From the IMG/VR virus record IMGVR_UViG_638341087_000016: a stretch of 33,462 nt of DNA, one strand, 5' to 3'. Origin of the DNA: a virus. Taxonomy: Duplodnaviria; Heunggongvirae; Uroviricota; Caudoviricetes. The position numbers and the translations under genes are program-made. The number at the start of each line of letters is the position of its first letter. Positions within the stretch are counted from its first letter, which is position 1. Shown one piece after another: positions 1 to 25,464 of this stretch. Under the pieces are notes generated by a model that did not search any database, was not told where the DNA came from, and worked only from the letters and a program-made list of their open reading frames with translations.

Positions 1-966
1 ATGAAGCTATACATCATCGGGAATGGGTTTGATCTGCATCACGAACTTGACACGAGCTATTTCTCATTTGGGGATTATCTTCGGAAGAAAGACCAAGACA
101 TTTACGATCACTTGGTTGATTTTATGGGATTTACTGACTTACCCCCTAAACTTTCCGCAGTTGATAAGTCAAAACATTTTCTTTGGTCTGATTTCGAAAA
201 CAGCTTAGCGGGTCTGGATACAGAGTCAGTGCTCGAAGAGTTTTGCTATCTTTTACCCCAAATTAGCAGCCCTGATTTTCGTGACAAGGACTGGGGCTCA
301 TTAAGCATTGAAATGGAACGTATACTAAAAAATTTAACCGAAGGGCTTTTAACACAATTCAAGTCATTTATATTGCAGGTTAACTACCCCGAACTTAATT
401 TAAATAAAAGATTGCGTATCGATTCTGACTCTATCTTTATCAGTTTTAATTATACTGAGACTCTTCAGAAATACTATGGTATTGATGATAGACAAATTTT
501 ATATATCCATGGAAAAGCATCATCAGATCAACAGTTGATTTTAGGTCATGGTATTGACCCTATCAACTTTGAAGAAAAGGAAGCAGTCCCGCCCGAAAAT
601 GCAACCGATGAAGAACTTGAAGAGTGGCGTCAGTGTATGGCTGATAATTACGATCACTCTTATGAAATGGGAAAGCAGACTATTAATAAATACTTCACTT
701 GTTCTTTTAAGAATACTGAAAAAGTCATTGCTGACAGCGCTAAATTTTTTAAAAATCTCAGCAACGTAGACGAAATCATCATCATCGGCCATTCGTTATC
801 ATCTGTAGATGTTCCCTACTTTTCTTTTATACATAGCATTGTTAGTGAAAATACGGAATGGATAGCCACCTATTATCAGGAAACTGAGCGTGAAGCACAT
901 CATACAACATTATGTGAGATTGGCATTAAATCTCCCAAACTGATTTCAGTAAGTAAACTTCTATAA
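1..966 (+). CDS. AbiH-like abortive infection protein
   Basis: 321-aa ORF beginning MKLYIIGNGFDLHHEL, the N-terminal signature I associate with the AbiH family; AT-rich relative to the phage core. Confidence 0.55.
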   Translation: MKLYIIGNGFDLHHELDTSYFSFGDYLRKKDQDIYDHLVDFMGFTDLPPKLSAVDKSKHFLWSDFENSLAGLDTESVLEEFCYLLPQISSPDFRDKDWGSLSIEMERILKNLTEGLLTQFKSFILQVNYPELNLNKRLRIDSDSIFISFNYTETLQKYYGIDDRQILYIHGKASSDQQLILGHGIDPINFEEKEAVPPENATDEELEEWRQCMADNYDHSYEMGKQTINKYFTCSFKNTEKVIADSAKFFKNLSNVDEIIIIGHSLSSVDVPYFSFIHSIVSENTEWIATYYQETEREAHHTTLCEIGIKSPKLISVSKLL

Positions 967-1550: not shown

Positions 1551-3275
1551 TCAGGCTATCAGGGGGCCGTATTTGCTTTTCAATGTGCCGGTTTTATTGG
1601 CCGTTGCGGTGAACTGCGCCGCCTGCCCACTGGCCCCCGTATTGGGGTGAGTATGTGATGCGGCAGTCTCTGCCAGCTCCCTCACCACGTCCAGGGTGTC
1701 GGTGAGCAGTGTCAGGACGTTAATCTCTTCGCTTCCCAGCTTTACCACCGGGGCAATCAGTTGTTGCGCCTGGGCCACACTTCGGCGAATGCCGCTGATT
1801 TTTTCAGTCAGTGCGCCGCTGACGTTTGACGTGACATCCCCTTTCACGTCGTCTGTAACATTGCCCGCGACATCCCGTTTCACGTTCCGGCCAACACTGA
1901 CGGAATTGTCCTTGCTGCAGGTTACTGTCAGGTTGCCGGATGTGCCGACGCTGTAATCCCCCTCGCTGATATGAACGACCGCCCCGGCCAGAAGTGTGGC
2001 CGTGCCAAGCACGGTTGTTTTATCTGTTGCCTGGACCGTAGTTTCACGGGCAACCACTTTGCGGATCTCTTCGTCGGTGGTGACTTCGCGAGTCATGGAG
2101 TTTTCGCGGATTGTCTGATCCGTCTGGCGTTCCCAGTCTCCGGCAACCGTCACGCGCTGCGATACACCATCGCGCTGTTGCTGCAACTGCTCACCGGGTT
2201 TAACCGCTGGCAGGTTATGACCCTCCGCCATAATCTGACGCACAAAGGGCTTATCCTGCCGCCCCTCAGTGAACCCAACTTCAACCAGCGTGCCAGGGGG
2301 CGGAAACTGAAACATTCCTGACTCGCTGCCCGCCATTGGCACAGGTAGTGGAACGGCAGAATAGATCGGCGTATTTGCGGCTGGCTTGCCGTCTTCGTCA
2401 AGCAGCTGGAGATCCACGGCATAGCGTGGGCGGAATGGATCGGCAATATCCCCCCCTGAAACATCCTCGCTTGGCGCTTCCACCCTAGCGAATCTTGGAA
2501 GATGCAGGCCGCTTGCCAGCTCCGGGAATGCGTTTTCAATCTGCCGCTGAATGGGTGATTTTTGCAATGGCTGGCCGTTGGCTTTGTTGCGGGGCTGCCA
2601 GGTAATTGCCATGTCATCGTTATTTAGCCGGACCTGGTTCAGCCGCTGGCCGTTTACCTCCGCACCCGGGCGCAGGCTCTGAATCATTGGCACAACCATT
2701 GAATTTCCGCCTGCCGATTCCTGGCTAAATTCGTGCGGGATCTCCACTGGTTTTCCCGCAAAAAGACTATGCTCCGCAGCGCCGACGAAGACATCCCCGT
2801 CCGGCAACTGATACCAAAGATAATCCGTCACTGAAAATGCACGGCCCAGACTGGCAAAAAGCTGATAGCCCGTGCCGCTGTGCGTAAAGTGGGGGATCGG
2901 TTTATCTGCATAAGCAGCGCCGACCGGCGTTGTGACGGTCAGCCCGCTTTGCTCACTTATCCAGTCAGTAATCTGGCGCAACGTTGGATGCTGGAAAGAA
3001 CACGGCCACAATTTATCAAAGATGCCGACCAGCTCACGCACGAACAACCGGCATGTTCCATTATCAGCAGGCTGTGACCGTTCGACGTACCCGGTAAACC
3101 AGCGCAGGACCAGACCATCATAACCAACATCGATACGCACCATTTTGCCGGTGTAATCTGTCTCTGTCCCTGCCGTAATAAACCCCCGACCGCACGCGTT
3201 CAGCTCCAGCACGATATTGCAGTCAATCAGATGGACCGGATCAGAGGAAAGGTACAGGCGTTTAATTGGTTTCAT
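1551..3275 (-). CDS. D: Late control gene D-like baseplate hub protein with a C-terminal spike-like extension
   Basis: 574 aa; N-terminal region has the gpD-type VGYDG...FTGYVE pattern; C-terminal region has short repeats and an SHTHPNTG motif resembling spike apex HxH motifs; ATG start and TGA stop verified. Confidence 0.65.
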   Translation of the reverse strand: MKPIKRLYLSSDPVHLIDCNIVLELNACGRGFITAGTETDYTGKMVRIDVGYDGLVLRWFTGYVERSQPADNGTCRLFVRELVGIFDKLWPCSFQHPTLRQITDWISEQSGLTVTTPVGAAYADKPIPHFTHSGTGYQLFASLGRAFSVTDYLWYQLPDGDVFVGAAEHSLFAGKPVEIPHEFSQESAGGNSMVVPMIQSLRPGAEVNGQRLNQVRLNNDDMAITWQPRNKANGQPLQKSPIQRQIENAFPELASGLHLPRFARVEAPSEDVSGGDIADPFRPRYAVDLQLLDEDGKPAANTPIYSAVPLPVPMAGSESGMFQFPPPGTLVEVGFTEGRQDKPFVRQIMAEGHNLPAVKPGEQLQQQRDGVSQRVTVAGDWERQTDQTIRENSMTREVTTDEEIRKVVARETTVQATDKTTVLGTATLLAGAVVHISEGDYSVGTSGNLTVTCSKDNSVSVGRNVKRDVAGNVTDDVKGDVTSNVSGALTEKISGIRRSVAQAQQLIAPVVKLGSEEINVLTLLTDTLDVVRELAETAASHTHPNTGASGQAAQFTATANKTGTLKSKYGPLIA

Positions 3276-8854: not shown

Positions 8855-9182
8855 AGTTAACCTCTGTACTGACAGGGCCGAAATCGTAGGTTTCCGCCGT
8901 GATATACAACCTCGAAAGGGTTTCTTCGGTGATCACTATGGTTCCTGGGACCAGACGTTCGTCGCTTTCCACCAGTAAGGACAGTTGCGTCAGCACGTCA
9001 CCGCGCATTGTCGGGCTGCGTTCACCGATCAGGCGGGTGGTGATACCGCTTTCCAGAATGCTGTGAATAATGTCCTGGGTGATGCTGTCGCGGTTATCGC
9101 AACGGCGCGGCTCGTTGCCGCTGTCCAGCGTGAAATCGCCGTCAGTGATCAAAAGGTCGATGTATAACGGTTCGGTACTCAT
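8847..9182 (-). CDS. Small baseplate protein (gpW/gp25-like or Mu gp46-like)
   Basis: 111-aa ORF immediately upstream of the J-like gene with start/stop overlaps. Confidence 0.5.
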   Translation of the reverse strand: MSTEPLYIDLLITDGDFTLDSGNEPRRCDNRDSITQDIIHSILESGITTRLIGERSPTMRGDVLTQLSLLVESDERLVPGTIVITEETLSRLYITAETYDFGPVSTEVNYD

Positions 9183-10570
9183 CCTGCGTTAAGCTCCTGC
9201 CATTCAGCCAGCTGGGCCGGGGTGATTCCATTGGGGGCGTTGATGTAGGTATCGCCCCACGTTTTACGGTTATCAACAGCGGTTTTGCTGTCGTTTTTAA
9301 CCTGACTCATCAGGCCGCCGCGTGGGATGCCTGCATTAATTCGGTTCCCCGTCAGCACGGACGGGCTGTTTAGCTTCGATGAACCTGCAGCACTGTCAGG
9401 AATGACCGCATTTGCCGGAACGGCAGCCGCTGCCGGTGGCGAAACGGTTTTCAGGTCGATGTTTACGCCGGGGATCTTGTTTAACTTCTCGACAATCCAG
9501 TTATAGGTAGACGCAAAGGTATTTTTGAGGACGTCAAAAAGTTTGCTGAATACCCCGCCGATGGTTTGTGCGAACCCTTCAAAGGTGGCAAGCGGGGAAA
9601 GACCGGCAAAGAAATCAACCACCACGGCCCAGCCGTCTGTGATGGACTGCCAGACCTGCGCAAACACCTGGCCTACCTGTTCAGCGACCGACATCACCCA
9701 GGCAAAAGCCGACGTATCCATGATTGCTGCCGCCAGTTCTTCCCAGTGGGTGATGACATACCAGACCCCCACGGCCAGAAGTGCCAGCCCGGCAACGATC
9801 AGAGTGATCGGACTCATCAGGAGTTGCATTGCCGCCCCGGCAAACATGGTCGCCGCACCGTAAACCCGCATGGCAATGGCTCCGGCCTTTAACGCGATAT
9901 TCCATGCAGCAAGCGCGATGCGGCAGACGCCCGTCCACAGCGCCAGTAATTTTGACTGGATCCACAATGCAGCCAGACCGATGCGCGTCGTCAGCAGGAA
10001 CGGACGCAACAGGTTGAGCGTCCATAACAGGAGTTTCCATGCCCCGCCCAGCACTTTTGCAATTGCGGCCAGCCCTGTCATGGTGAAGCCAAAGACCCCC
10101 ATCACGATATTGACCGCCGCCCCAGCCAACCCGAAGGACAGCACGCCCAGGGTGATGTAACCCAGCCAGCGGGCAATATTCGGGAACATATCCAGCCAGC
10201 GGGCAAATTTTGTCCCTACGTCGGCAATACGGTTCATCAGCGGCGACAGGATAGGGAACAGCGTGTTACCAATCGCCACGCGAATGGCAAAGAATGTCGC
10301 TTTGATACGTTCCCACGGCTCAGCCATTCGTTCGGCCATTTCCTGGGCGCGTTTCATCCCGTCATTTCGGCCCAGCTCGGTGATGCTGCGGTTTAATTTA
10401 TCCTGCTGGCCGTACAGCTTTTTGATAACGTCAGCACCACCACCGAACGCGGCATCCAGCGCCTGTTGTGCCTTGACGTTCCCTTCAATGCTCTGCCCGT
10501 ATTTGTTCTGGAGTTTTTGCAGAATGTCGCCCATCGGCAGCATTTTTCCGGTGGCATCGACAAAGCTCAT
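9179..10570 (-). CDS. Tail tape measure protein, C-terminal portion (downstream of the in-frame TAG)
   Basis: 463 aa with hydrophobic Gly/Ala-rich segments typical of tape measure proteins; the frame stays open upstream from 10570 to 10732. Confidence 0.7.
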   Translation of the reverse strand: MSFVDATGKMLPMGDILQKLQNKYGQSIEGNVKAQQALDAAFGGGADVIKKLYGQQDKLNRSITELGRNDGMKRAQEMAERMAEPWERIKATFFAIRVAIGNTLFPILSPLMNRIADVGTKFARWLDMFPNIARWLGYITLGVLSFGLAGAAVNIVMGVFGFTMTGLAAIAKVLGGAWKLLLWTLNLLRPFLLTTRIGLAALWIQSKLLALWTGVCRIALAAWNIALKAGAIAMRVYGAATMFAGAAMQLLMSPITLIVAGLALLAVGVWYVITHWEELAAAIMDTSAFAWVMSVAEQVGQVFAQVWQSITDGWAVVVDFFAGLSPLATFEGFAQTIGGVFSKLFDVLKNTFASTYNWIVEKLNKIPGVNIDLKTVSPPAAAAVPANAVIPDSAAGSSKLNSPSVLTGNRINAGIPRGGLMSQVKNDSKTAVDNRKTWGDTYINAPNGITPAQLAEWQELNAG

Positions 10571-10732
10571 ACCCAGCTTTTCAGCGGCAGCCGGGGCGCT
10601 GCGTAAAAACTGCTCGTAGATCCCGCTGGCCTCAGTACCCAGCGTGCGCGAAAGCGTACCCAGTACGGCGAACTGTTCATCCAGGCTGACGCCAAAGTCA
10701 GCACCGGCGCTTTTCGTCCCCTCGATAAGCTC

Positions 10733-11293
10733 CTACATGGTCTGCATTTTCACGCCGAAGTTTTGCACCATGTACGCCGTTTTTCCTGCCAGCTCTTCGG
10801 CAAAACGCACATGCCCCAGACTGGACAATTCCGCGTTGAAACGTGACGCCATCGCGCCGATGTATTCGCCTGCCTCTTCGCCGCTGGCCTTGACGCCTGC
10901 GGCCAGGGTATTGGCCGCGATGGTAACGCGGGGCAGGTCCAGATCGGACAGGCCCGCCATTGCGCCTTTCATCGCGTAGCTTGACCGGACCACATCAACG
11001 GCCCCTTTGCCGTAGCGCATACTGAATCGCATGGCTTCGCCGGACATACGCTTCAGCGCGTCCTCTGCTACGCCTTTGGAACCCACTTCTGCAAGCGCGG
11101 CGTTCATCTCATACGCCGGACCCACCACGCCCGCGATGGACTGCGCCACGCCCCAGACAGCCGCCGCACCAATCCCGATTTTTGTAAAAGACTCCTGCGA
11201 TTTTTCAGCAAAGCCAGACAGCGAAGACTGGGCCGTCTTTAATGGCCGCGTCAGCTTATCGATCAGGCTCAGGGTAAAATCCAGGTGGCTCAT
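10733..11293 (-). CDS. Tail tape measure protein, N-terminal portion ending at an in-frame TAG
   Basis: 186 aa in the same frame as 9179-10570; TAG at 10733-10735 verified from the sequence; ATG at 11291-11293. Confidence 0.7.
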   Translation of the reverse strand: MSHLDFTLSLIDKLTRPLKTAQSSLSGFAEKSQESFTKIGIGAAAVWGVAQSIAGVVGPAYEMNAALAEVGSKGVAEDALKRMSGEAMRFSMRYGKGAVDVVRSSYAMKGAMAGLSDLDLPRVTIAANTLAAGVKASGEEAGEYIGAMASRFNAELSSLGHVRFAEELAGKTAYMVQNFGVKMQTM

Positions 11294-11294
11294 A

Positions 11295-11492
11295 TCAGTT
11301 TCCGTTAAATGCGATTGCTATCCCTTCCGCCGTCTTACTGGCGCGGGTCTGGGCGAAATATTCATCCAGCCACAGGGCGCGGGCGATGCTTTCTTCGTCG
11401 TCGTCTTCGTGCGGGAGGTAATAGCGGCGCAAGGCAAGGTATTGCTCCAGGGCATTCGTGCGAATGGCCGCTACCCGCGCCGTCAGTTTTTT
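11295..11492 (-). other. Candidate -1 programmed frameshift extension of the tail assembly chaperone
   Basis: mRNA reads GUA AAA AAC UGA at the chaperone end (slippery A_AAA_AAC at 11486-11492); the -1 frame is open for 63 codons to a TGA at 11295-11297; the +1 frame is also open across this gap, so the direction rests on the slippery heptamer. Confidence 0.55.
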
Positions 11493-11752
11493 ACTTCGAT
11501 CTCAAGTTTTGGGGAGTAAATTTCGTTAACCTTCTCGACGATCTGCATTTCGCAGCCCGGATAATCTTCCATCAGCTTGTTGAGCGCCTCTTTACACTCG
11601 GCATCAACAATGCGGCCCAGATACGTCACCATTGGGGCAACTTTATTGGTCATGGTCATTTCGTTAAGCAGGTTGTTGAACGCGGTTTTATTCGGCTCAA
11701 AGCTCAGATTTACGCCCGCCACGGTCATGGCGATTTTTTTCGATTTGCTCAT
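11483..11752 (-). CDS. Tail assembly chaperone
   Basis: 89-aa ORF immediately upstream of the tape measure gene, ending in a slippery heptamer. Confidence 0.6.
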   Translation of the reverse strand: MSKSKKIAMTVAGVNLSFEPNKTAFNNLLNEMTMTNKVAPMVTYLGRIVDAECKEALNKLMEDYPGCEMQIVEKVNEIYSPKLEIEVKN

Positions 11753-12045
11753 TGTGCTAATTCCTTACGTTGTCGAATGATGCCCACCAGGGCGTTATGT
11801 CGGGCGGCGCAGTCGGTATACATCAGCCGGTAGGCTTTCAGCGCCGCGTCAAAGTCACTTCCGGTCGGTCCGGCCAGACGTGGCAACGTGACCGGGCAAA
11901 GTGCCAGCTGGTTTTCCTGATAATTTTCGTTCGGCTTGATCTGCACTTTCGTTGAACAACCGGACGTAATCATCAGAAGCACAAACATTGCTAAAAACCG
12001 ATTTAATGGTTTCCGTGCGGATAACCCGTTCCGTATGAATTTCAT
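11749..12045 (-). CDS. o-spanin (Rz1-like outer-membrane lipoprotein)
   Basis: 98 aa with a positively charged N-region, hydrophobic core and MITSGC lipobox; starts inside the i-spanin gene and extends past its end. Confidence 0.6.
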   Translation of the reverse strand: MKFIRNGLSARKPLNRFLAMFVLLMITSGCSTKVQIKPNENYQENQLALCPVTLPRLAGPTGSDFDAALKAYRLMYTDCAARHNALVGIIRQRKELAQ

Positions 12046-12238
12046 TGGCCCTCAGCTCCGCGAGTTTTGCTTCCAGCGCTTCACCAGACTGCTGTGTCAC
12101 CTCAACAACAATCTGGCGCGTTTGTTCTGCCGCTTCACTGGCAGCGAGTTTCAGCTTTGCGTCGTGCCAGTCATGCGCCTGCCAGCCCGCTGACATTGCA
12201 GCTGCCAGAATCAGCAAAAGACCCAGCAAATTGCGCAT
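11855..12238 (-). CDS. i-spanin (Rz-like)
   Basis: 127 aa with an N-terminal TM helix (LLGLLLILAAAMSAGW) and a charged helical periplasmic region; follows the endolysin gene. Confidence 0.6.
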   Translation of the reverse strand: MRNLLGLLLILAAAMSAGWQAHDWHDAKLKLAASEAAEQTRQIVVEVTQQSGEALEAKLAELRANEIHTERVIRTETIKSVFSNVCASDDYVRLFNESADQAERKLSGKPAGTLPGHVATSGRTDRK

Positions 12239-12576
12239 CAGCGAACCCCGTTATGCTCAAGACTGAAATGGTTCCCGTCCGGCTTACTGAAACGTCCACC
12301 CCACGATCCGCCGATAGATTCCCAGTATTCGCCCAGGGGGCGATATGCGGCGCTGTCGGTCTGGTATTCGCCGTTAATAAACAGGTTAAAATCCACCGCA
12401 AGGCGCTGGGTATGCAGGCTGTTAGTAATGCCGCTCCCTTTTTTTGCGTTAAGCGCGGCCTGTTCCGGCGTGCGGTACGCTTCGCCAAACGTCAGGCGAT
12501 AGCCTTTTTCCTGGGCAAAATGAATCAGGCTGGCGATCATCACCGTAAAAAGTTGCTGTTTTTCACTCAGTTTCAT
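12238..12576 (-). CDS. Endolysin, peptidase M15-type
   Basis: 112 aa with Zn-ligand spacing H-x6-D (SLHTQRLAVD) and a second His (DGNHFSLEH), characteristic of M15 peptidoglycan peptidases. Confidence 0.75.
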   Translation of the reverse strand: MKLSEKQQLFTVMIASLIHFAQEKGYRLTFGEAYRTPEQAALNAKKGSGITNSLHTQRLAVDFNLFINGEYQTDSAAYRPLGEYWESIGGSWGGRFSKPDGNHFSLEHNGVR

Positions 12577-12874
12577 TGCGCTTGCTCCCCCATCGCTTGA
12601 TATACATGTCCAGGCAGCGCTTTAGCCCCGCCTCAATAAACGCACTTCCCAGAATGCCCAGGGCGCAGGCCAGCCCAATGACGACCAGTTCCGGCATATC
12701 GGGGAATTTCAGCAGCGGGATTGCGGCCAGCGGTGCGACTGCAGATCCCAGAATCATCCGCCCGACCAGCAGACGGGTTGTGATTCGCTCATTGCTGACC
12801 ATCAGTTGCCCCAGGCCGATCACGGCCCCGATAAGCAACAGCTTTTCAAGCAGTGACGTTTCTCCGTTCATCAT
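12563..12874 (-). CDS. Holin (P2 gpY-like)
   Basis: 103-aa membrane protein resembling the P2 Y holin (TTRLLVGRM, LLKFPDMPEL); directly upstream of the endolysin. Confidence 0.65.
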   Translation of the reverse strand: MMNGETSLLEKLLLIGAVIGLGQLMVSNERITTRLLVGRMILGSAVAPLAAIPLLKFPDMPELVVIGLACALGILGSAFIEAGLKRCLDMYIKRWGSKRNETE

Positions 12875-12878
12875 CGTG

Positions 12879-13334
12879 TCAGCCTTTCAGATCTCGAGTG
12901 TCACGGGCTGACAGGTACGGCACGCCGTCAATCGCGACAAAGTCCGGGCTTGTCACCATGAATTTAATTTTTTTCGTGGTTTTGCTGGCCTCGTTGGGGT
13001 TGATGTTGACGATGTCGGACAGCGTCGGAACACAGCCAAACACCTCGATTTTTTCTTCGTCATCCCCCGCATTGGCATAGAACAAAAAGTCCTTTGCCGG
13101 AATGGCTCGCCAGGAACCTGCGGCACGGGCAACGGCGGTAAACTTTTTAAAGCTCTGGGAATCGACTTCGACTTCCACATCCGCCGAAACTGACCCTTTC
13201 GTGTGGCCGTTCGGGATGCCACGCGACTGCGCAACGGCGCTGTTATCCGTAATGGTGACGGTGGCGTTTTCGACGTGAATCATGATGCTGTCGTAGTTCA
13301 CATCGAACGATCCGCCGCTAATACGTTCAGTCAT
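12879..13334 (-). CDS. Tail tube protein
   Basis: 151-aa ORF immediately downstream of the sheath gene; size and position fit a contractile-tail tube. Confidence 0.65.
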   Translation of the reverse strand: MTERISGGSFDVNYDSIMIHVENATVTITDNSAVAQSRGIPNGHTKGSVSADVEVEVDSQSFKKFTAVARAAGSWRAIPAKDFLFYANAGDDEEKIEVFGCVPTLSDIVNINPNEASKTTKKIKFMVTSPDFVAIDGVPYLSARDTRDLKG

Positions 13335-22671: not shown

Positions 22672-25464
22672 TTAATCTGAAAGTTCACCAATATCATCCA
22701 TTGGTTTTTTATCATTAAAAGATAGACGAAGTTTTTGTTCATGTAATGCAGTGATTTTTTTACAACTATCTACAGAAATATAATAAAACGACAAGCCATC
22801 GTTATTAATAAATTCCAAATTAATCCTAATAGACATCAGCGCGTACATCAATGGATTTTCATCCTTGAAATTATACAACCCCTTAACTAAGGAAATATTC
22901 TCATCAGAAATACTTTCAATTTTCAAATCAAATAAATTAGTATTCCGCAGACAGGAAAATACGCTCAAAAAATCCATGTAGTAAAGACCAGGAGACCCCA
23001 AACCCAAAACTCCTTTTGAATCTGTTATTCTCATACCTTTTGAGTAACGGTAAACACTTGCCTCTCCTTTAACCATGTAATGAATTGTTATAAGCTTATC
23101 GGAAGGTAGTTCACTTACATCTTCGATCTCATTTACATCTTTATATTGGCCTTTAATTCCATCAAGCATTTTATGAAGCCAAGCATAGACAAACACTTCA
23201 GCATGATGTGAACTATTCATTGAATAATGCACTTTATCAATTGACTGCAAGACTTCTCTCTTATTAATCAATGAATAGAATGGATTGCAGACAACTGAAT
23301 TTGACACAGGAATAGAATCAATATCTACGAATTTATTAAAATACCCACCTAATGATATTGATACTTTATCTATGTATTTATTAACCAGAACCTTATCAAG
23401 GTCAGAAGAAACAATAGAATTTGCGATTAATTCATTTTTTACAGAAATTATACTTTCAAGATGCTCTGCAACCTCCATCCGATTTGTTTCTTGAGAAGAT
23501 CCTTCATTAATCAACTCTAATAAAGCTGAAAATTCATCACCTTTCAAATATGATATAAGTGATTGCAGTTCATGAGTTGTTATTTTTGTATTTTTAATAA
23601 ACTCTTTTTTATTACGTATAAAAATAGGATTGAGGTTGTTTTTATTAAATAATGTTTGAGTCATTAAAAGGGATACTGCTTTGAAAGCATCGTTATTTAT
23701 TGAAAAGGTTGCAACCTCATAATCAGGTATATCTCTTAAAGTTCTACTTGCATCAAAATCAGGTTCAGATGGGACTGTAAATATAACATCATACACGCCA
23801 CTCTTATAAAAAAGATCTTCTAGGAATGAAGGTGCTAACCATTTCATTAAATTCTGTTTTATTATTCTCAATTCCTCCTGATGCCCATCACTTTTTTCAG
23901 ATAAATAGCACAGCCTAATAATCAGTAAAGTTATAACCTGTCTTACACACGATACCATCTTGTTCTCAATGATACTAAGGGTTTCGCCATCATCAGATGA
24001 CTCTGGATAACGAAATTTCTCAGTCAAGAATCGAGTATTCAGGCTAAATGCCAAATAATTCTTTGACAAGATGTTGTCTCTCACCGTTGACATATATAAA
24101 TCAAAAAAACGATATTCTGGATCACCTAAACTATATTGAGCACGATGTTCCAATGACGGTGATATCAATTTATAAAATTCATCATATTGCTCATTATCAT
24201 AAATATACCTTCCCAAATCCATAATCGATCGAAGAGCATCACACACTATATTATAGTTTTTATACCCACTCACTTCAGAACTAACCTTCATATAAAAAGC
24301 AGCAAAAATTGAATACTCTATATTATTTTTTTTGTTAGTATAACCAAAAGAGTGATTGAGGTTATGTATTACTTTAACTAATTCAGTTTCACTAACTAAT
24401 GTGAAGATAGCTCTTATGCTAAAATCTAACGCTAACTCATTACCACTAAAAAGACTATTTCTTAAGCTAATAACTACTGCATCTTCATACTTACCGTAAT
24501 TCAAGAAGCTTTCAGGAGCTGAACTGAACACCAATCCTTTTTTCAATAGTTTTGTAACATTACTAATTAATAGCTCATCGATCGACGCTCCATCTTGCAC
24601 TTCAATATGAACCGATGAGGTTGATAGTGGATATATAAAGTTAAGATTCACGCGTAAATCAGTACGTACCACTTTCGAAAAACGCTCTAGCTCATTGTTA
24701 ATTTCTTTAAAGCAAATTGGACAAAAATCATTAATAATGACATTTTGATTATTTTGGAAAATATTTAACTTACGTTGTTCTTTATTGATAAAATCGGAAT
24801 CCCACCCATAATGAATATATTCAAAATCATTAATCATGTTTAAAAATTTATTTTCTATAGTTCTTCTACGTTCGTCAATCAATAAATAATCATTTTTAGC
24901 CTTATCAAGCTCAAAAAATAAACGATCAGTTATTATAGTTGGATTCTCAGTAACATTATATAATTTCAGATACATTGAACCATAATTAAAAATAAAGTAT
25001 AACGATACAAAAATGGATATAGCATAAGTAATCATGCCGCCACCACATGAAAGCAATACGATACCACTTAAAAGACTAAAAATAGAATTTAAACTAAACT
25101 TTAAAAAACTAGTTTTCCGCAACAACATCGACTTACAAATATTTTCAAAGCCATGTTCAGAATAATTAGAAACCTGACTAACAAACATTCCCATAAATGT
25201 AATTGATAGTGCAGCAATAGTTCCATGTATGCCTAAAACTCCCGCCCAAACACTAGTAGTCCAATTCAATGGGGAATTATTGAGAAAAGATGGTGTTACA
25301 AGTAAATACTTTACCCCTTCATCAACATATCTAGAGTAGATTACACCGGAAATACCCAACCCGACCAGAATAAAGTAGATCAAGAAGATAATTATAACTT
25401 CCCTATTTATACTTAAAAAACCATTATTAAAAATAATTTTTCTTTCCAAAATCAGACCCCACAT
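22672..25464 (-). CDS. Large membrane-anchored protein of unknown function; candidate single-gene anti-phage cargo
   Basis: 930-aa ORF with ATG start; about four N-terminal hydrophobic helices in residues 20-160 and a roughly 770-aa soluble region; very AT-rich coding sequence; no Walker A or other motif recognised by eye. Confidence 0.8.
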   Translation of the reverse strand: MWGLILERKIIFNNGFLSINREVIIIFLIYFILVGLGISGVIYSRYVDEGVKYLLVTPSFLNNSPLNWTTSVWAGVLGIHGTIAALSITFMGMFVSQVSNYSEHGFENICKSMLLRKTSFLKFSLNSIFSLLSGIVLLSCGGGMITYAISIFVSLYFIFNYGSMYLKLYNVTENPTIITDRLFFELDKAKNDYLLIDERRRTIENKFLNMINDFEYIHYGWDSDFINKEQRKLNIFQNNQNVIINDFCPICFKEINNELERFSKVVRTDLRVNLNFIYPLSTSSVHIEVQDGASIDELLISNVTKLLKKGLVFSSAPESFLNYGKYEDAVVISLRNSLFSGNELALDFSIRAIFTLVSETELVKVIHNLNHSFGYTNKKNNIEYSIFAAFYMKVSSEVSGYKNYNIVCDALRSIMDLGRYIYDNEQYDEFYKLISPSLEHRAQYSLGDPEYRFFDLYMSTVRDNILSKNYLAFSLNTRFLTEKFRYPESSDDGETLSIIENKMVSCVRQVITLLIIRLCYLSEKSDGHQEELRIIKQNLMKWLAPSFLEDLFYKSGVYDVIFTVPSEPDFDASRTLRDIPDYEVATFSINNDAFKAVSLLMTQTLFNKNNLNPIFIRNKKEFIKNTKITTHELQSLISYLKGDEFSALLELINEGSSQETNRMEVAEHLESIISVKNELIANSIVSSDLDKVLVNKYIDKVSISLGGYFNKFVDIDSIPVSNSVVCNPFYSLINKREVLQSIDKVHYSMNSSHHAEVFVYAWLHKMLDGIKGQYKDVNEIEDVSELPSDKLITIHYMVKGEASVYRYSKGMRITDSKGVLGLGSPGLYYMDFLSVFSCLRNTNLFDLKIESISDENISLVKGLYNFKDENPLMYALMSIRINLEFINNDGLSFYYISVDSCKKITALHEQKLRLSFNDKKPMDDIGELSD

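Follow-up and report, generated by a model that had tools for sequence, protein, structure and literature searches.

Does the short interval that separates a P2/HP1-like prophage's tail assembly chaperone gene from its tape measure gene encode the C-terminal part of a second, longer form of the chaperone, and, if so, by what route is this part reached? The locus in question lies on the minus strand of the virus record IMGVR_UViG_638341087_000016 (Caudoviricetes), a stretch of 33,462 nucleotides (nt) that was analyzed as a whole and is referred to below as the window. An initial annotation made from its letters had drawn attention to a slippery heptamer at the end of the chaperone gene and to an open -1 frame that extends from it towards the tape measure gene. 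That observation as a whole has been partly confirmed. The answer that we consider probable, on comparative grounds, is that a programmed -1 ribosomal frameshift leads to a fusion of 152 amino acids (aa), in which the chaperone is joined to a DUF6890 domain in a manner analogous to lambda gpGT and P2 gpE+E'.

Frame geometry at the end of the chaperone gene

The argument turns on a small number of features that are all located on the minus strand:

11483..11752 (-): tail assembly chaperone gene; zero-frame product of 89 aa with the C-terminus ...LEIEVKN
11492..11486 (-): slippery heptamer A_AAA_AAC in X_XXY_YYZ phase, composed of the wobble A of Val87, the Lys88 codon AAA and the Asn89 codon AAC
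11485..11483 (-): zero-frame stop UGA directly 3' of the heptamer; a candidate pause element ("shifty stop")
11295..11486 (-): -1 frame extension of 63 sense codons (LTARVAAIR...AFNGN) with its stop TGA at 11297..11295; the T-like or E'-like part of the putative fusion
11504..11502 (-): upstream TGA that closes the -1 frame, the long -1 open reading frame (ORF) starting at 11501
11513..11507 (-): second in-phase heptamer, C_CCA_AAA, confined to the closest relatives
11301..11432 (-): DUF6890 domain (PF21830 and phrog_7050), residues 108-151 of the putative fusion
9179..11293 (-): tape measure gene (phrog_28 and phrog_19166), of 704 codons in relatives

When read from the sequence, the end of the chaperone ORF is GTA AAA AAC TGA, exactly as had been reported at the level of the mRNA (GUA AAA AAC UGA), and the heptamer that it contains is in the appropriate phase, with Lys88 and Asn89 being the final two sense codons of the chaperone. 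Entered at the C of 11486, the -1 frame begins CUG ACG GCG and continues for precisely the 63 sense codons that had been claimed for it; its translation is LTARVAAIRTNALEQYLALRRYYLPHEDDDEESIARALWLDEYFAQTRASKTAEGIAIAFNGN. The initial annotation had placed the stop of this frame correctly at 11297..11295 but described it as lying past the tape measure ATG; in fact it is upstream of this ATG (11293..11291), from which it is separated by a single spacer base (T, 11294). The +1 frame, which had been thought to be open across the same gap, is shut after 40 codons (stop at 11364..11362) and contains two further stops before the tape measure start. Because this frame is closed within the gap, the frameshift call does not rest on the heptamer alone, as had been supposed.

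The long -1 ORF opens 15 nt ahead of the last base of the heptamer. The -1 frame TGA at 11504..11502 and the zero-frame stop at 11485 consequently confine any productive shift to the 16-nt interval 11501..11486, and this interval is filled by the heptamer. The upstream motif C_CCA_AAA (11513..11507) was rejected as a productive site: a -1 shift on it reads ACU and then immediately the UGA at 11504..11502, and the motif is not conserved. There is also a step in G+C content at the shift site, from 45.9% in the chaperone ORF to 59.4% in the -1 extension (50.4% in the window).

Conservation of the extension and of the shift site

The protein families encoded on the two sides of the heptamer are readily recognized. 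The zero-frame product matches the tail assembly chaperone (TAC) family PF10963, Phage_TAC_10 (4.8e-30, 104 bits against a cut-off of 25.7), as well as phrog_1214 (1.6e-35). An AlphaFold (AF2) model of the 89-aa chaperone, with a predicted local distance difference test score (pLDDT) of 84, had a single significant match in the Protein Data Bank (PDB), Rbstp2171 (3FGX; template modelling score 0.71, E 9.6e-4), which belongs to the spiral tail assembly chaperones whose structures have been solved (PMC9603447, which cites Pell et al. 2013). The family match and the model both support the identity originally proposed for this gene. The -1 half of the fusion aligns with DUF6890 (PF21830) over the full profile, positions 1-44 of 44 (2e-21, 75.9 bits against a cut-off of 23.6), and with phrog_7050 (8.2e-25). 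In a model of the 63-aa extension (pLDDT 82) a helix is predicted from residue 3 onwards; a fold search with this model returned only nonspecific helical matches, all with E > 4, while a search of NCBIfam gave no match and a sequence search of the PDB nothing meaningful.

To follow the locus among its relatives we compared about 90 loci whose chaperones range from 100% down to 51% identity. The Emticicia/Cytophagaceae loci L013-L015 were left out of this set, since they match over only 34-37 residues (41-44%), are without a -1 ORF and are not demonstrably related. The length of the -1 ORF is 63-64 codons in 78 enterobacterial loci and 60-63 in the named phages. The three frames of the extension behave very differently in the 66 distinct sequences, as is apparent from the number of stops per sequence and from the median ratio of nonsynonymous to synonymous polymorphism (pN/pS):

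-1 frame: 0 stops per sequence, median pN/pS 0.38
Frame 0: 2-6 stops per sequence, median pN/pS 1.08
Frame +1: 1-9 stops per sequence, median pN/pS 1.65

Third-position variability is dominant in the -1 frame, and this is already so in codons 1-18, upstream of any annotated start. Judged by these substitution patterns, purifying selection acts on the extension in no frame but -1, and does so from its very first codon. The extension is in fact better conserved than the chaperone domain, with I97, R109, L113, P114, A126, W128 and L129 (fusion numbering) being invariant. No conserved start codon was found in the -1 ORF among the relatives; the earliest ATG, GTG or TTG comes anywhere between codon 5 and codon 58 of the 63, and in many of them it is located at codons 40-58. 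None of the 64 homologues listed is an in-frame fusion, none of them exceeding 92 aa and the coverage being 55-59% of the fusion. A tblastn search with the fusion sequence, which is independent of the patterns used for retrieval, matched 67 phage records, 66 of which cover at least 80% of the fusion; in all 60 records among the matches listed, the match is in two pieces and two frames.

The conservation of the heptamer in relatives, a check that the initial annotation had itself named, is striking: either A_AAA_AAC or A_AAA_AAA is present in all the relatives examined, and in all of them a stop codon abuts it. All of the approximately 90 loci end with (G/A/T)TA AAA AAC, followed directly by TGA, TAA or TAG. 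A_AAA_AAC with its stop is found in HP1, K139, F108, phiO18P and YenM_324, and A_AAA_AAA with TAG or TAA in seven marine phages (PV94, SMHB1, yong1, C5a, PY3, 1.202.O and ValB1MD-2) of Vibrio, Salinivibrio and Pseudoalteromonas; the site is invariant across genera, from Escherichia to Haemophilus and Pseudoalteromonas. The -1 frame of the relatives opens 9-39 nt upstream of the last base of the heptamer. Across 60 distinct contexts nothing varies from position -1 to position +7 (T AAAAAAC T), whereas the neighboring wobble sites are saturated. These contexts provide an internal control: the wobble position of the invariant Asn76 is C in 37 and T in 23, whereas that of Asn89, within the heptamer, is C in all 60 and never T. 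A C-to-T change at the Asn89 wobble would be synonymous in both frames (AAT for Asn; TTG or TTA for Leu), and constraints on coding do not account for its invariance. The same wobble C (11486) is present in HP1, K139, F108 and phiO18P; A, in the marine clade, is the sole alternative, and G or T never occurs. Similarly, the Lys may be preceded by Val, Ile or Leu, yet the final base of that codon is A in every case, even when this results in the rare ATA.

Two of the loci excluded from the comparison, L013 and L014 from metagenome-assembled genomes of Emticicia, have a somewhat different appearance. Their chaperone match is 44% over 34 residues, an A_AAA_AAT lies 9 nt before the ORF stop, and a tape measure-sized ORF begins at the end of the chaperone-like ORF with no 60-codon -1 ORF in between. 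They possibly represent a different chaperone arrangement in phages of the Bacteroidota.

How the second frame is reached

Frame geometry, protein families, selection in the -1 frame, the lack of a conserved start and the invariant heptamer with its abutting stop are directly established, and a programmed -1 ribosomal frameshift is, with good probability, their explanation. Most ribosomes would decode GUA AAA AAC and terminate at the UGA at 11485..11483, releasing the free 89-aa chaperone; a small fraction would slip back one base on A_AAA_AAC and read CUG ACG GCG and on to the UGA at 11297..11295. The latter would synthesize a protein of 152 aa, in which the chaperone domain is followed by a helical DUF6890 domain of 63 aa with the junction ...EIEVKN-LTARV.... 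Both the efficiency of the shift and its ribosomal, rather than transcriptional, nature are inferred. In lambda, the G and GT proteins are made at a ratio of about 30:1, an arrangement that is widely conserved, and the G part binds the tape measure while the T part recruits the tube subunit (PMC5009743). By analogy with lambda gpG/gpGT and with P2 gpE/gpE+E', the common N-terminal domain would coat the tape measure protein, and the rare C-terminal DUF6890 domain would bind the tube protein and recruit this tail tube subunit, so that tube polymerization begins on the tape measure; neither the chaperone nor the fusion would remain in the virion.

A number of observations weigh against a programmed ribosomal frameshift at this site. 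The support for the fusion is comparative throughout, and slippage is annotated in none of the 14 relatives' records that we inspected, among which are the reference genomes of HP1, K139, F108 and phiO18P and the RefSeq E. coli prophages. The comparison with E/E' that had been suggested revealed a like layout in P2, but sequence homology to P2 E+E' was undetected (hhalign probability 0.08%, E 0.65). Tail assembly chaperones are highly diverged, and homology to P2 does not define the class. Another difficulty is the heptamer itself. The initial annotation called it canonical, which is right as regards the presence of the motif but overstates its strength, since A_AAA_AAC ranks near the top with mammalian ribosomes but is weak in E. 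coli (PMC4066793; PMC5009743). In E. coli it directs 0.163% frameshifting without a stimulator, 0.189% with the stimulators of the insertion sequence (IS) IS911 and 0.739% with the IS3 pseudoknot, the corresponding values for A_AAA_AAG being 4.3% with the IS911 stimulators and 39% with the IS3 pseudoknot (PMC4066793, Table S3). These A_AAA_AAC rates are far under the approximately 3% that the lambda ratio of 30:1 implies.

Furthermore, no downstream RNA stimulator was found. In minimum free energy, the 98 nt from the heptamer onwards are no better than shuffled sequences (z = -0.32), the RNAalifold consensus for 20 diverse relatives is empty, and no covarying helix exists among all the 6-bp helices that start 2-13 nt past the heptamer. 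Nothing came up beyond the self-complementarity of GC-rich Ala and Arg codons, and the leading candidate, 72% paired, lacks compensatory changes; on the z value, the empty consensus and the lack of compensatory changes, a stimulator of this kind was rejected. A conserved upstream Shine-Dalgarno-like element is likewise absent from the alignment of the relatives: 5' of the heptamer there is only a variable (G/T)GA(A/G)AT at -12 to -7, with GGAG in a few of them. Hence neither component of a stimulated -1 cassette of the dnaX or IS3/IS911 type was found, that is, neither a hairpin or pseudoknot 5-9 nt past the heptamer with covariation nor a Shine-Dalgarno-like element 6-17 nt before it. Finally, the run of A residues (six here; seven in the marine relatives) could also permit slippage by RNA polymerase.

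The only conserved feature in the context of the site is the stop codon that abuts the heptamer and, for this reason, slow termination at this stop may be what lifts an intrinsically weak heptamer to a useful level. We tentatively raise the possibility, about which we remain more doubtful than about the frameshift itself, that the adjacent zero-frame stop acts as a functional stimulator in a termination-coupled ("shifty stop") -1 frameshift. The ribosome would then await the release factor with the slippery codons in its E and P or its P and A sites, and the ratio of chaperone to fusion would be set by the competition between the release factor and the Leu- or Ile-tRNA of the -1 frame; such a ratio would be responsive to release-factor activity and to stop-codon context. 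A mechanism of this sort would explain why the heptamer always constitutes the last two codons across about a dozen genera of the Peduoviridae, why its wobble base is invariably C or A (never G or T) and why a like design exists in an unrelated Acinetobacter siphophage.

The open -1 frame could also be entered by a transcriptional route, in which RNA polymerase adds one A within the A6 run (A7 in the marine relatives). The mRNA would then read GUA AAA AAA CUG... and the junction would be ...VKK-LTARV instead of ...VKN-LTARV; after Glu-C digestion, the ribosomal route would yield the junction peptide VKNLTARVAAIRTNALE and the transcriptional one VKKLTARVAAIRTNALE. Many IS elements and type III secretion genes use slippage of this kind (PMC5009743), every relative has a homopolymeric A run at the site, extended to A7 in one clade, E. 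coli ribosomes shift on A_AAA_AAC with very low efficiency (PMC4066793, Table S3), and no RNA stimulator of ribosomal shifting was found. However, the efficient bacterial cases are documented at runs of about nine A or T (PMC5009743), a length of which six, or even the seven of the marine phages, falls short. A polymerase, moreover, has no need of the strict X_XXY_YYZ phase, of an invariant wobble A in the preceding Val, Ile or Leu codon (otherwise the run would be only five A) or of a stop that invariably abuts the run, and the identical heptamer of IS1 is listed among the proven frameshift sites in an article about -1 frameshifting by ribosomes (PMC4066793). We consequently assign transcriptional slippage a small, although not negligible, probability.

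The remaining explanations dispense with a fusion altogether. The -1 ORF might be an independent small gene translated from an internal start, as in the RefSeq annotation, where a 45-aa "DUF6890 family protein" begins at a TTG at 11432; in phage SI7 a GTG is available at codon 5. Such a coding sequence (CDS) is called both by the NCBI Prokaryotic Genome Annotation Pipeline (PGAP) and in phage records, and it is from these stand-alone calls that the Pfam family DUF6890 and phrog_7050 were built. What makes this very improbable is that the start is not conserved (codon 5 to 58 of 63), that the annotated proteins vary between 45 and 63 aa with ragged N-termini, that coding periodicity and conserved residues such as I97 occur in codons 1-18, upstream of the TTG, where the predicted helix also begins (residue 3), and that the stretch of about 190 nt is left unannotated in HP1, K139, YenM_324, PV94, SMHB1, C5a, PY3 and 1.202.O because no ORF is callable there. 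Termination followed by reinitiation near the chaperone UGA would instead produce a free, translation-coupled protein of 63 aa from the -1 frame. The -1 ORF does begin right at the stop codon region, and stop-start overlaps are common in this operon (e.g., the ATGA at 11752..11749), but its first codon is CUG, CUA or AUA, most relatives have no AUG, GUG or UUG near the stop, and neither the invariant slippery heptamer nor its phase would be explained; we give this route hardly any credence. As for simple coincidence, with the gap between chaperone and tape measure being noncoding, it must be conceded that the heptamer by itself is at no more than chance level (14 copies of AAAAAAC in the window vs 10.3 expected, with at least 14 being reached in 13 of 100 shuffles, which is not significant) and that a 63-codon open frame is not rare in sequence of 59% GC (our rough estimate is about 0.05). 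The signal above chance resides in the position, the phase, the protein-family matches and the conservation. The domain matches at 2e-21 and 8e-25, a pN/pS of 0.38 in the -1 frame only and a site that is invariant from Escherichia to Haemophilus and Pseudoalteromonas together leave coincidence virtually no probability and, as far as comparative data can do so, have already refuted it.

The locus, its annotation and its known counterparts

A programmed -1 frameshift at this site would be an unannotated case of a known frameshift class, in what is otherwise expected phage biology. The -1 ORF is skipped in the eight phages just named and in ValB1MD-2; elsewhere it is called as a stand-alone gene from whatever start is available, under the names "hypothetical", "DUF6890 family" or "tail assembly chaperone". 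The PGAP CDS that starts from the TTG at 11432 coincides with the DUF6890 domain, and the DUF6890 proteins that we found in the databases are all of 45-63 aa, with ragged N-termini. Our search of the literature encountered no mention of DUF6890, no experimental work on the clade and no description of a frameshift in HP1, K139 or Irrigatiovirus; the 28-phage study of Xu et al. (2004) was beyond its reach, and the PRFect supplement does not contain their list. The frameshift would give DUF6890/phrog_7050 a function, not as a free small protein but as the C-terminal domain (T-like or E'-like) that the HP1-type chaperone gains by shifting frame, and would call for a correction of the annotation across the HP1-type Peduoviridae. 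The design, a weak heptamer plus a stop, is a mechanistic curiosity, and the clade offers a natural series (A_AAA_AAC with a stop; A_AAA_AAA with a stop) in which to study whether an abutting stop can replace RNA stimulators in bacterial -1 frameshifting.

Upstream of the chaperone the order of genes on the minus strand is as follows:

12879..13334 (-): tail tube gene, HP1_Orf24-type
12563..12874 (-): holin gene of the lysis cassette, which sits between the tube gene and the chaperone
12238..12576 (-): M15 endolysin gene of the same cassette
11855..12238 (-): Rz spanin gene of the same cassette
11749..11988 (-): o-spanin (Rz1-like) gene, inside the ORF 11749..12045; lipobox MFVLLMITSGC, phrog_2425 and phrog_456

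The chaperone (11483..11752), the -1 ORF (11295..11486) and the tape measure gene (9179..11293) then follow; a DUF2586 sheath gene is also among the upstream genes. HP1 and K139 likewise have their lysis genes placed between tube and chaperone; in P2, E directly follows FII. The o-spanin gene overlaps the 3' end of Rz, and its stop shares the ATGA at 11752..11749 with the start of the chaperone (ATG 11752..11750); it is annotated in Yersinia phage YenM_324, but RefSeq does not call it in the identical region of E. coli. Elsewhere the window has the genes of a P2/HP1-like prophage, namely those for capsid, scaffold, terminase, portal, the GPA replication protein and integrase. Of 5,426 complete E. 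coli genomes, 18 contain prophages that share 99.9% identity with the region; for the Salmonella phages SI7, SW3 and SW5 (Peduoviridae, Irrigatiovirus) the figure is 96%. At the edge of the window, beside the tail fiber region, an ORF at 1..966 (+) belongs to the AbiH abortive-infection family (Pfam, 2.4e-60) and is likely a prophage-carried defense gene. Two large ORFs have no Pfam match: one of 930 aa at 22672..25464 (-), which has the portal/terminase block on one side and the GPA replication gene on the other, and one of 574 aa at 1551..3275 (-).

The tape measure gene had been correctly identified, as its match to phrog_28 indicates, but the copy in the window is broken. An amber TAG at 10735..10733 (-) interrupts it at codon 187, which is CAG (Gln187) in NZ_CP027388 and in E. 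coli 2011C-4251; this is the only difference from the latter across 10500..12300. The ORF is uninterrupted in every retrieved relative with a complete locus and is of 704 aa in the closest. The prophage copy in the window is probably tail-defective unless its host has an amber suppressor that inserts Gln.

The class to which we compare this site is the tail assembly chaperone programmed -1 frameshift (Xu, Hendrix and Duda 2004). With regard to the heptamer alone there are counterparts both within and outside of it. In the E. coli dnaX gene, too, ribosomes slip by -1 on an A-rich heptamer that is read by tRNA-Lys. Its A_AAA_AAG, together with an upstream Shine-Dalgarno-like element and a downstream hairpin, causes about 50% of the ribosomes to shift. 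Hence dnaX has the strong AAG form with two stimulators, whereas our locus has the weak AAC form, and such stimulators were not found beside it. The insA-insB' junction of IS1 has the identical A_AAA_AAC, on which a -1 shift of low efficiency is proven in E. coli although a stimulator has not been established (PMC4066793); it yields a transposase fusion rather than a phage chaperone, and the likeness drawn here is one of the heptamer. The Acinetobacter siphophage vB_AbaS_Loki (gp12/gp13) has AAAAAAC abutting its chaperone stop (PMC5313236), but it is an unrelated siphovirus and its site is a prediction only.

The closest counterparts are the chaperones of P2 and lambda. P2, also a member of the Peduoviridae, has its gpE/gpE+E' genes in the same position, after the tube gene and before T, with proteins of comparable length (P2, 91 and 142 aa; the window, 89 and 152 aa) and a fusion that ends at the tape measure start, with an 8-nt overlap in P2 and a 1-nt gap in the window. 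The E+E' fusion is annotated with this same layout in the P2 record and, unlike the one proposed here, has been experimentally confirmed; P2 differs further in its T_TTT_TTG site, which is about 20 nt before the E stop, and the HP1-type module has a lysis cassette between tube gene and chaperone. Like the present locus as we read it, lambda gpG/gpGT has a pair of overlapping ORFs immediately upstream of the tape measure gene, a rare fusion that arises by a -1 shift close to where the chaperone ORF ends, an N-terminal domain of TAC fold and an expected role in connecting tape measure and tail tube subunit (PMC5009743). Lambda is a siphovirus, in contrast to the contractile-tail HP1-type phage studied here, and its heptamer, G_GGA_AAG, is much stronger in E. 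coli; at the present site the final two codons make up the heptamer, directly adjoining the stop, and the Pfam families of the window, Phage_TAC_10 and DUF6890, differ from those of lambda. As judged from the sequence, every feature by which a chaperone -1 frameshift of the lambda G/GT and P2 E/E+E' type can be recognized is present at this site, and the locus conforms in this respect to the conserved arrangement of long-tailed phages that had been proposed for it.

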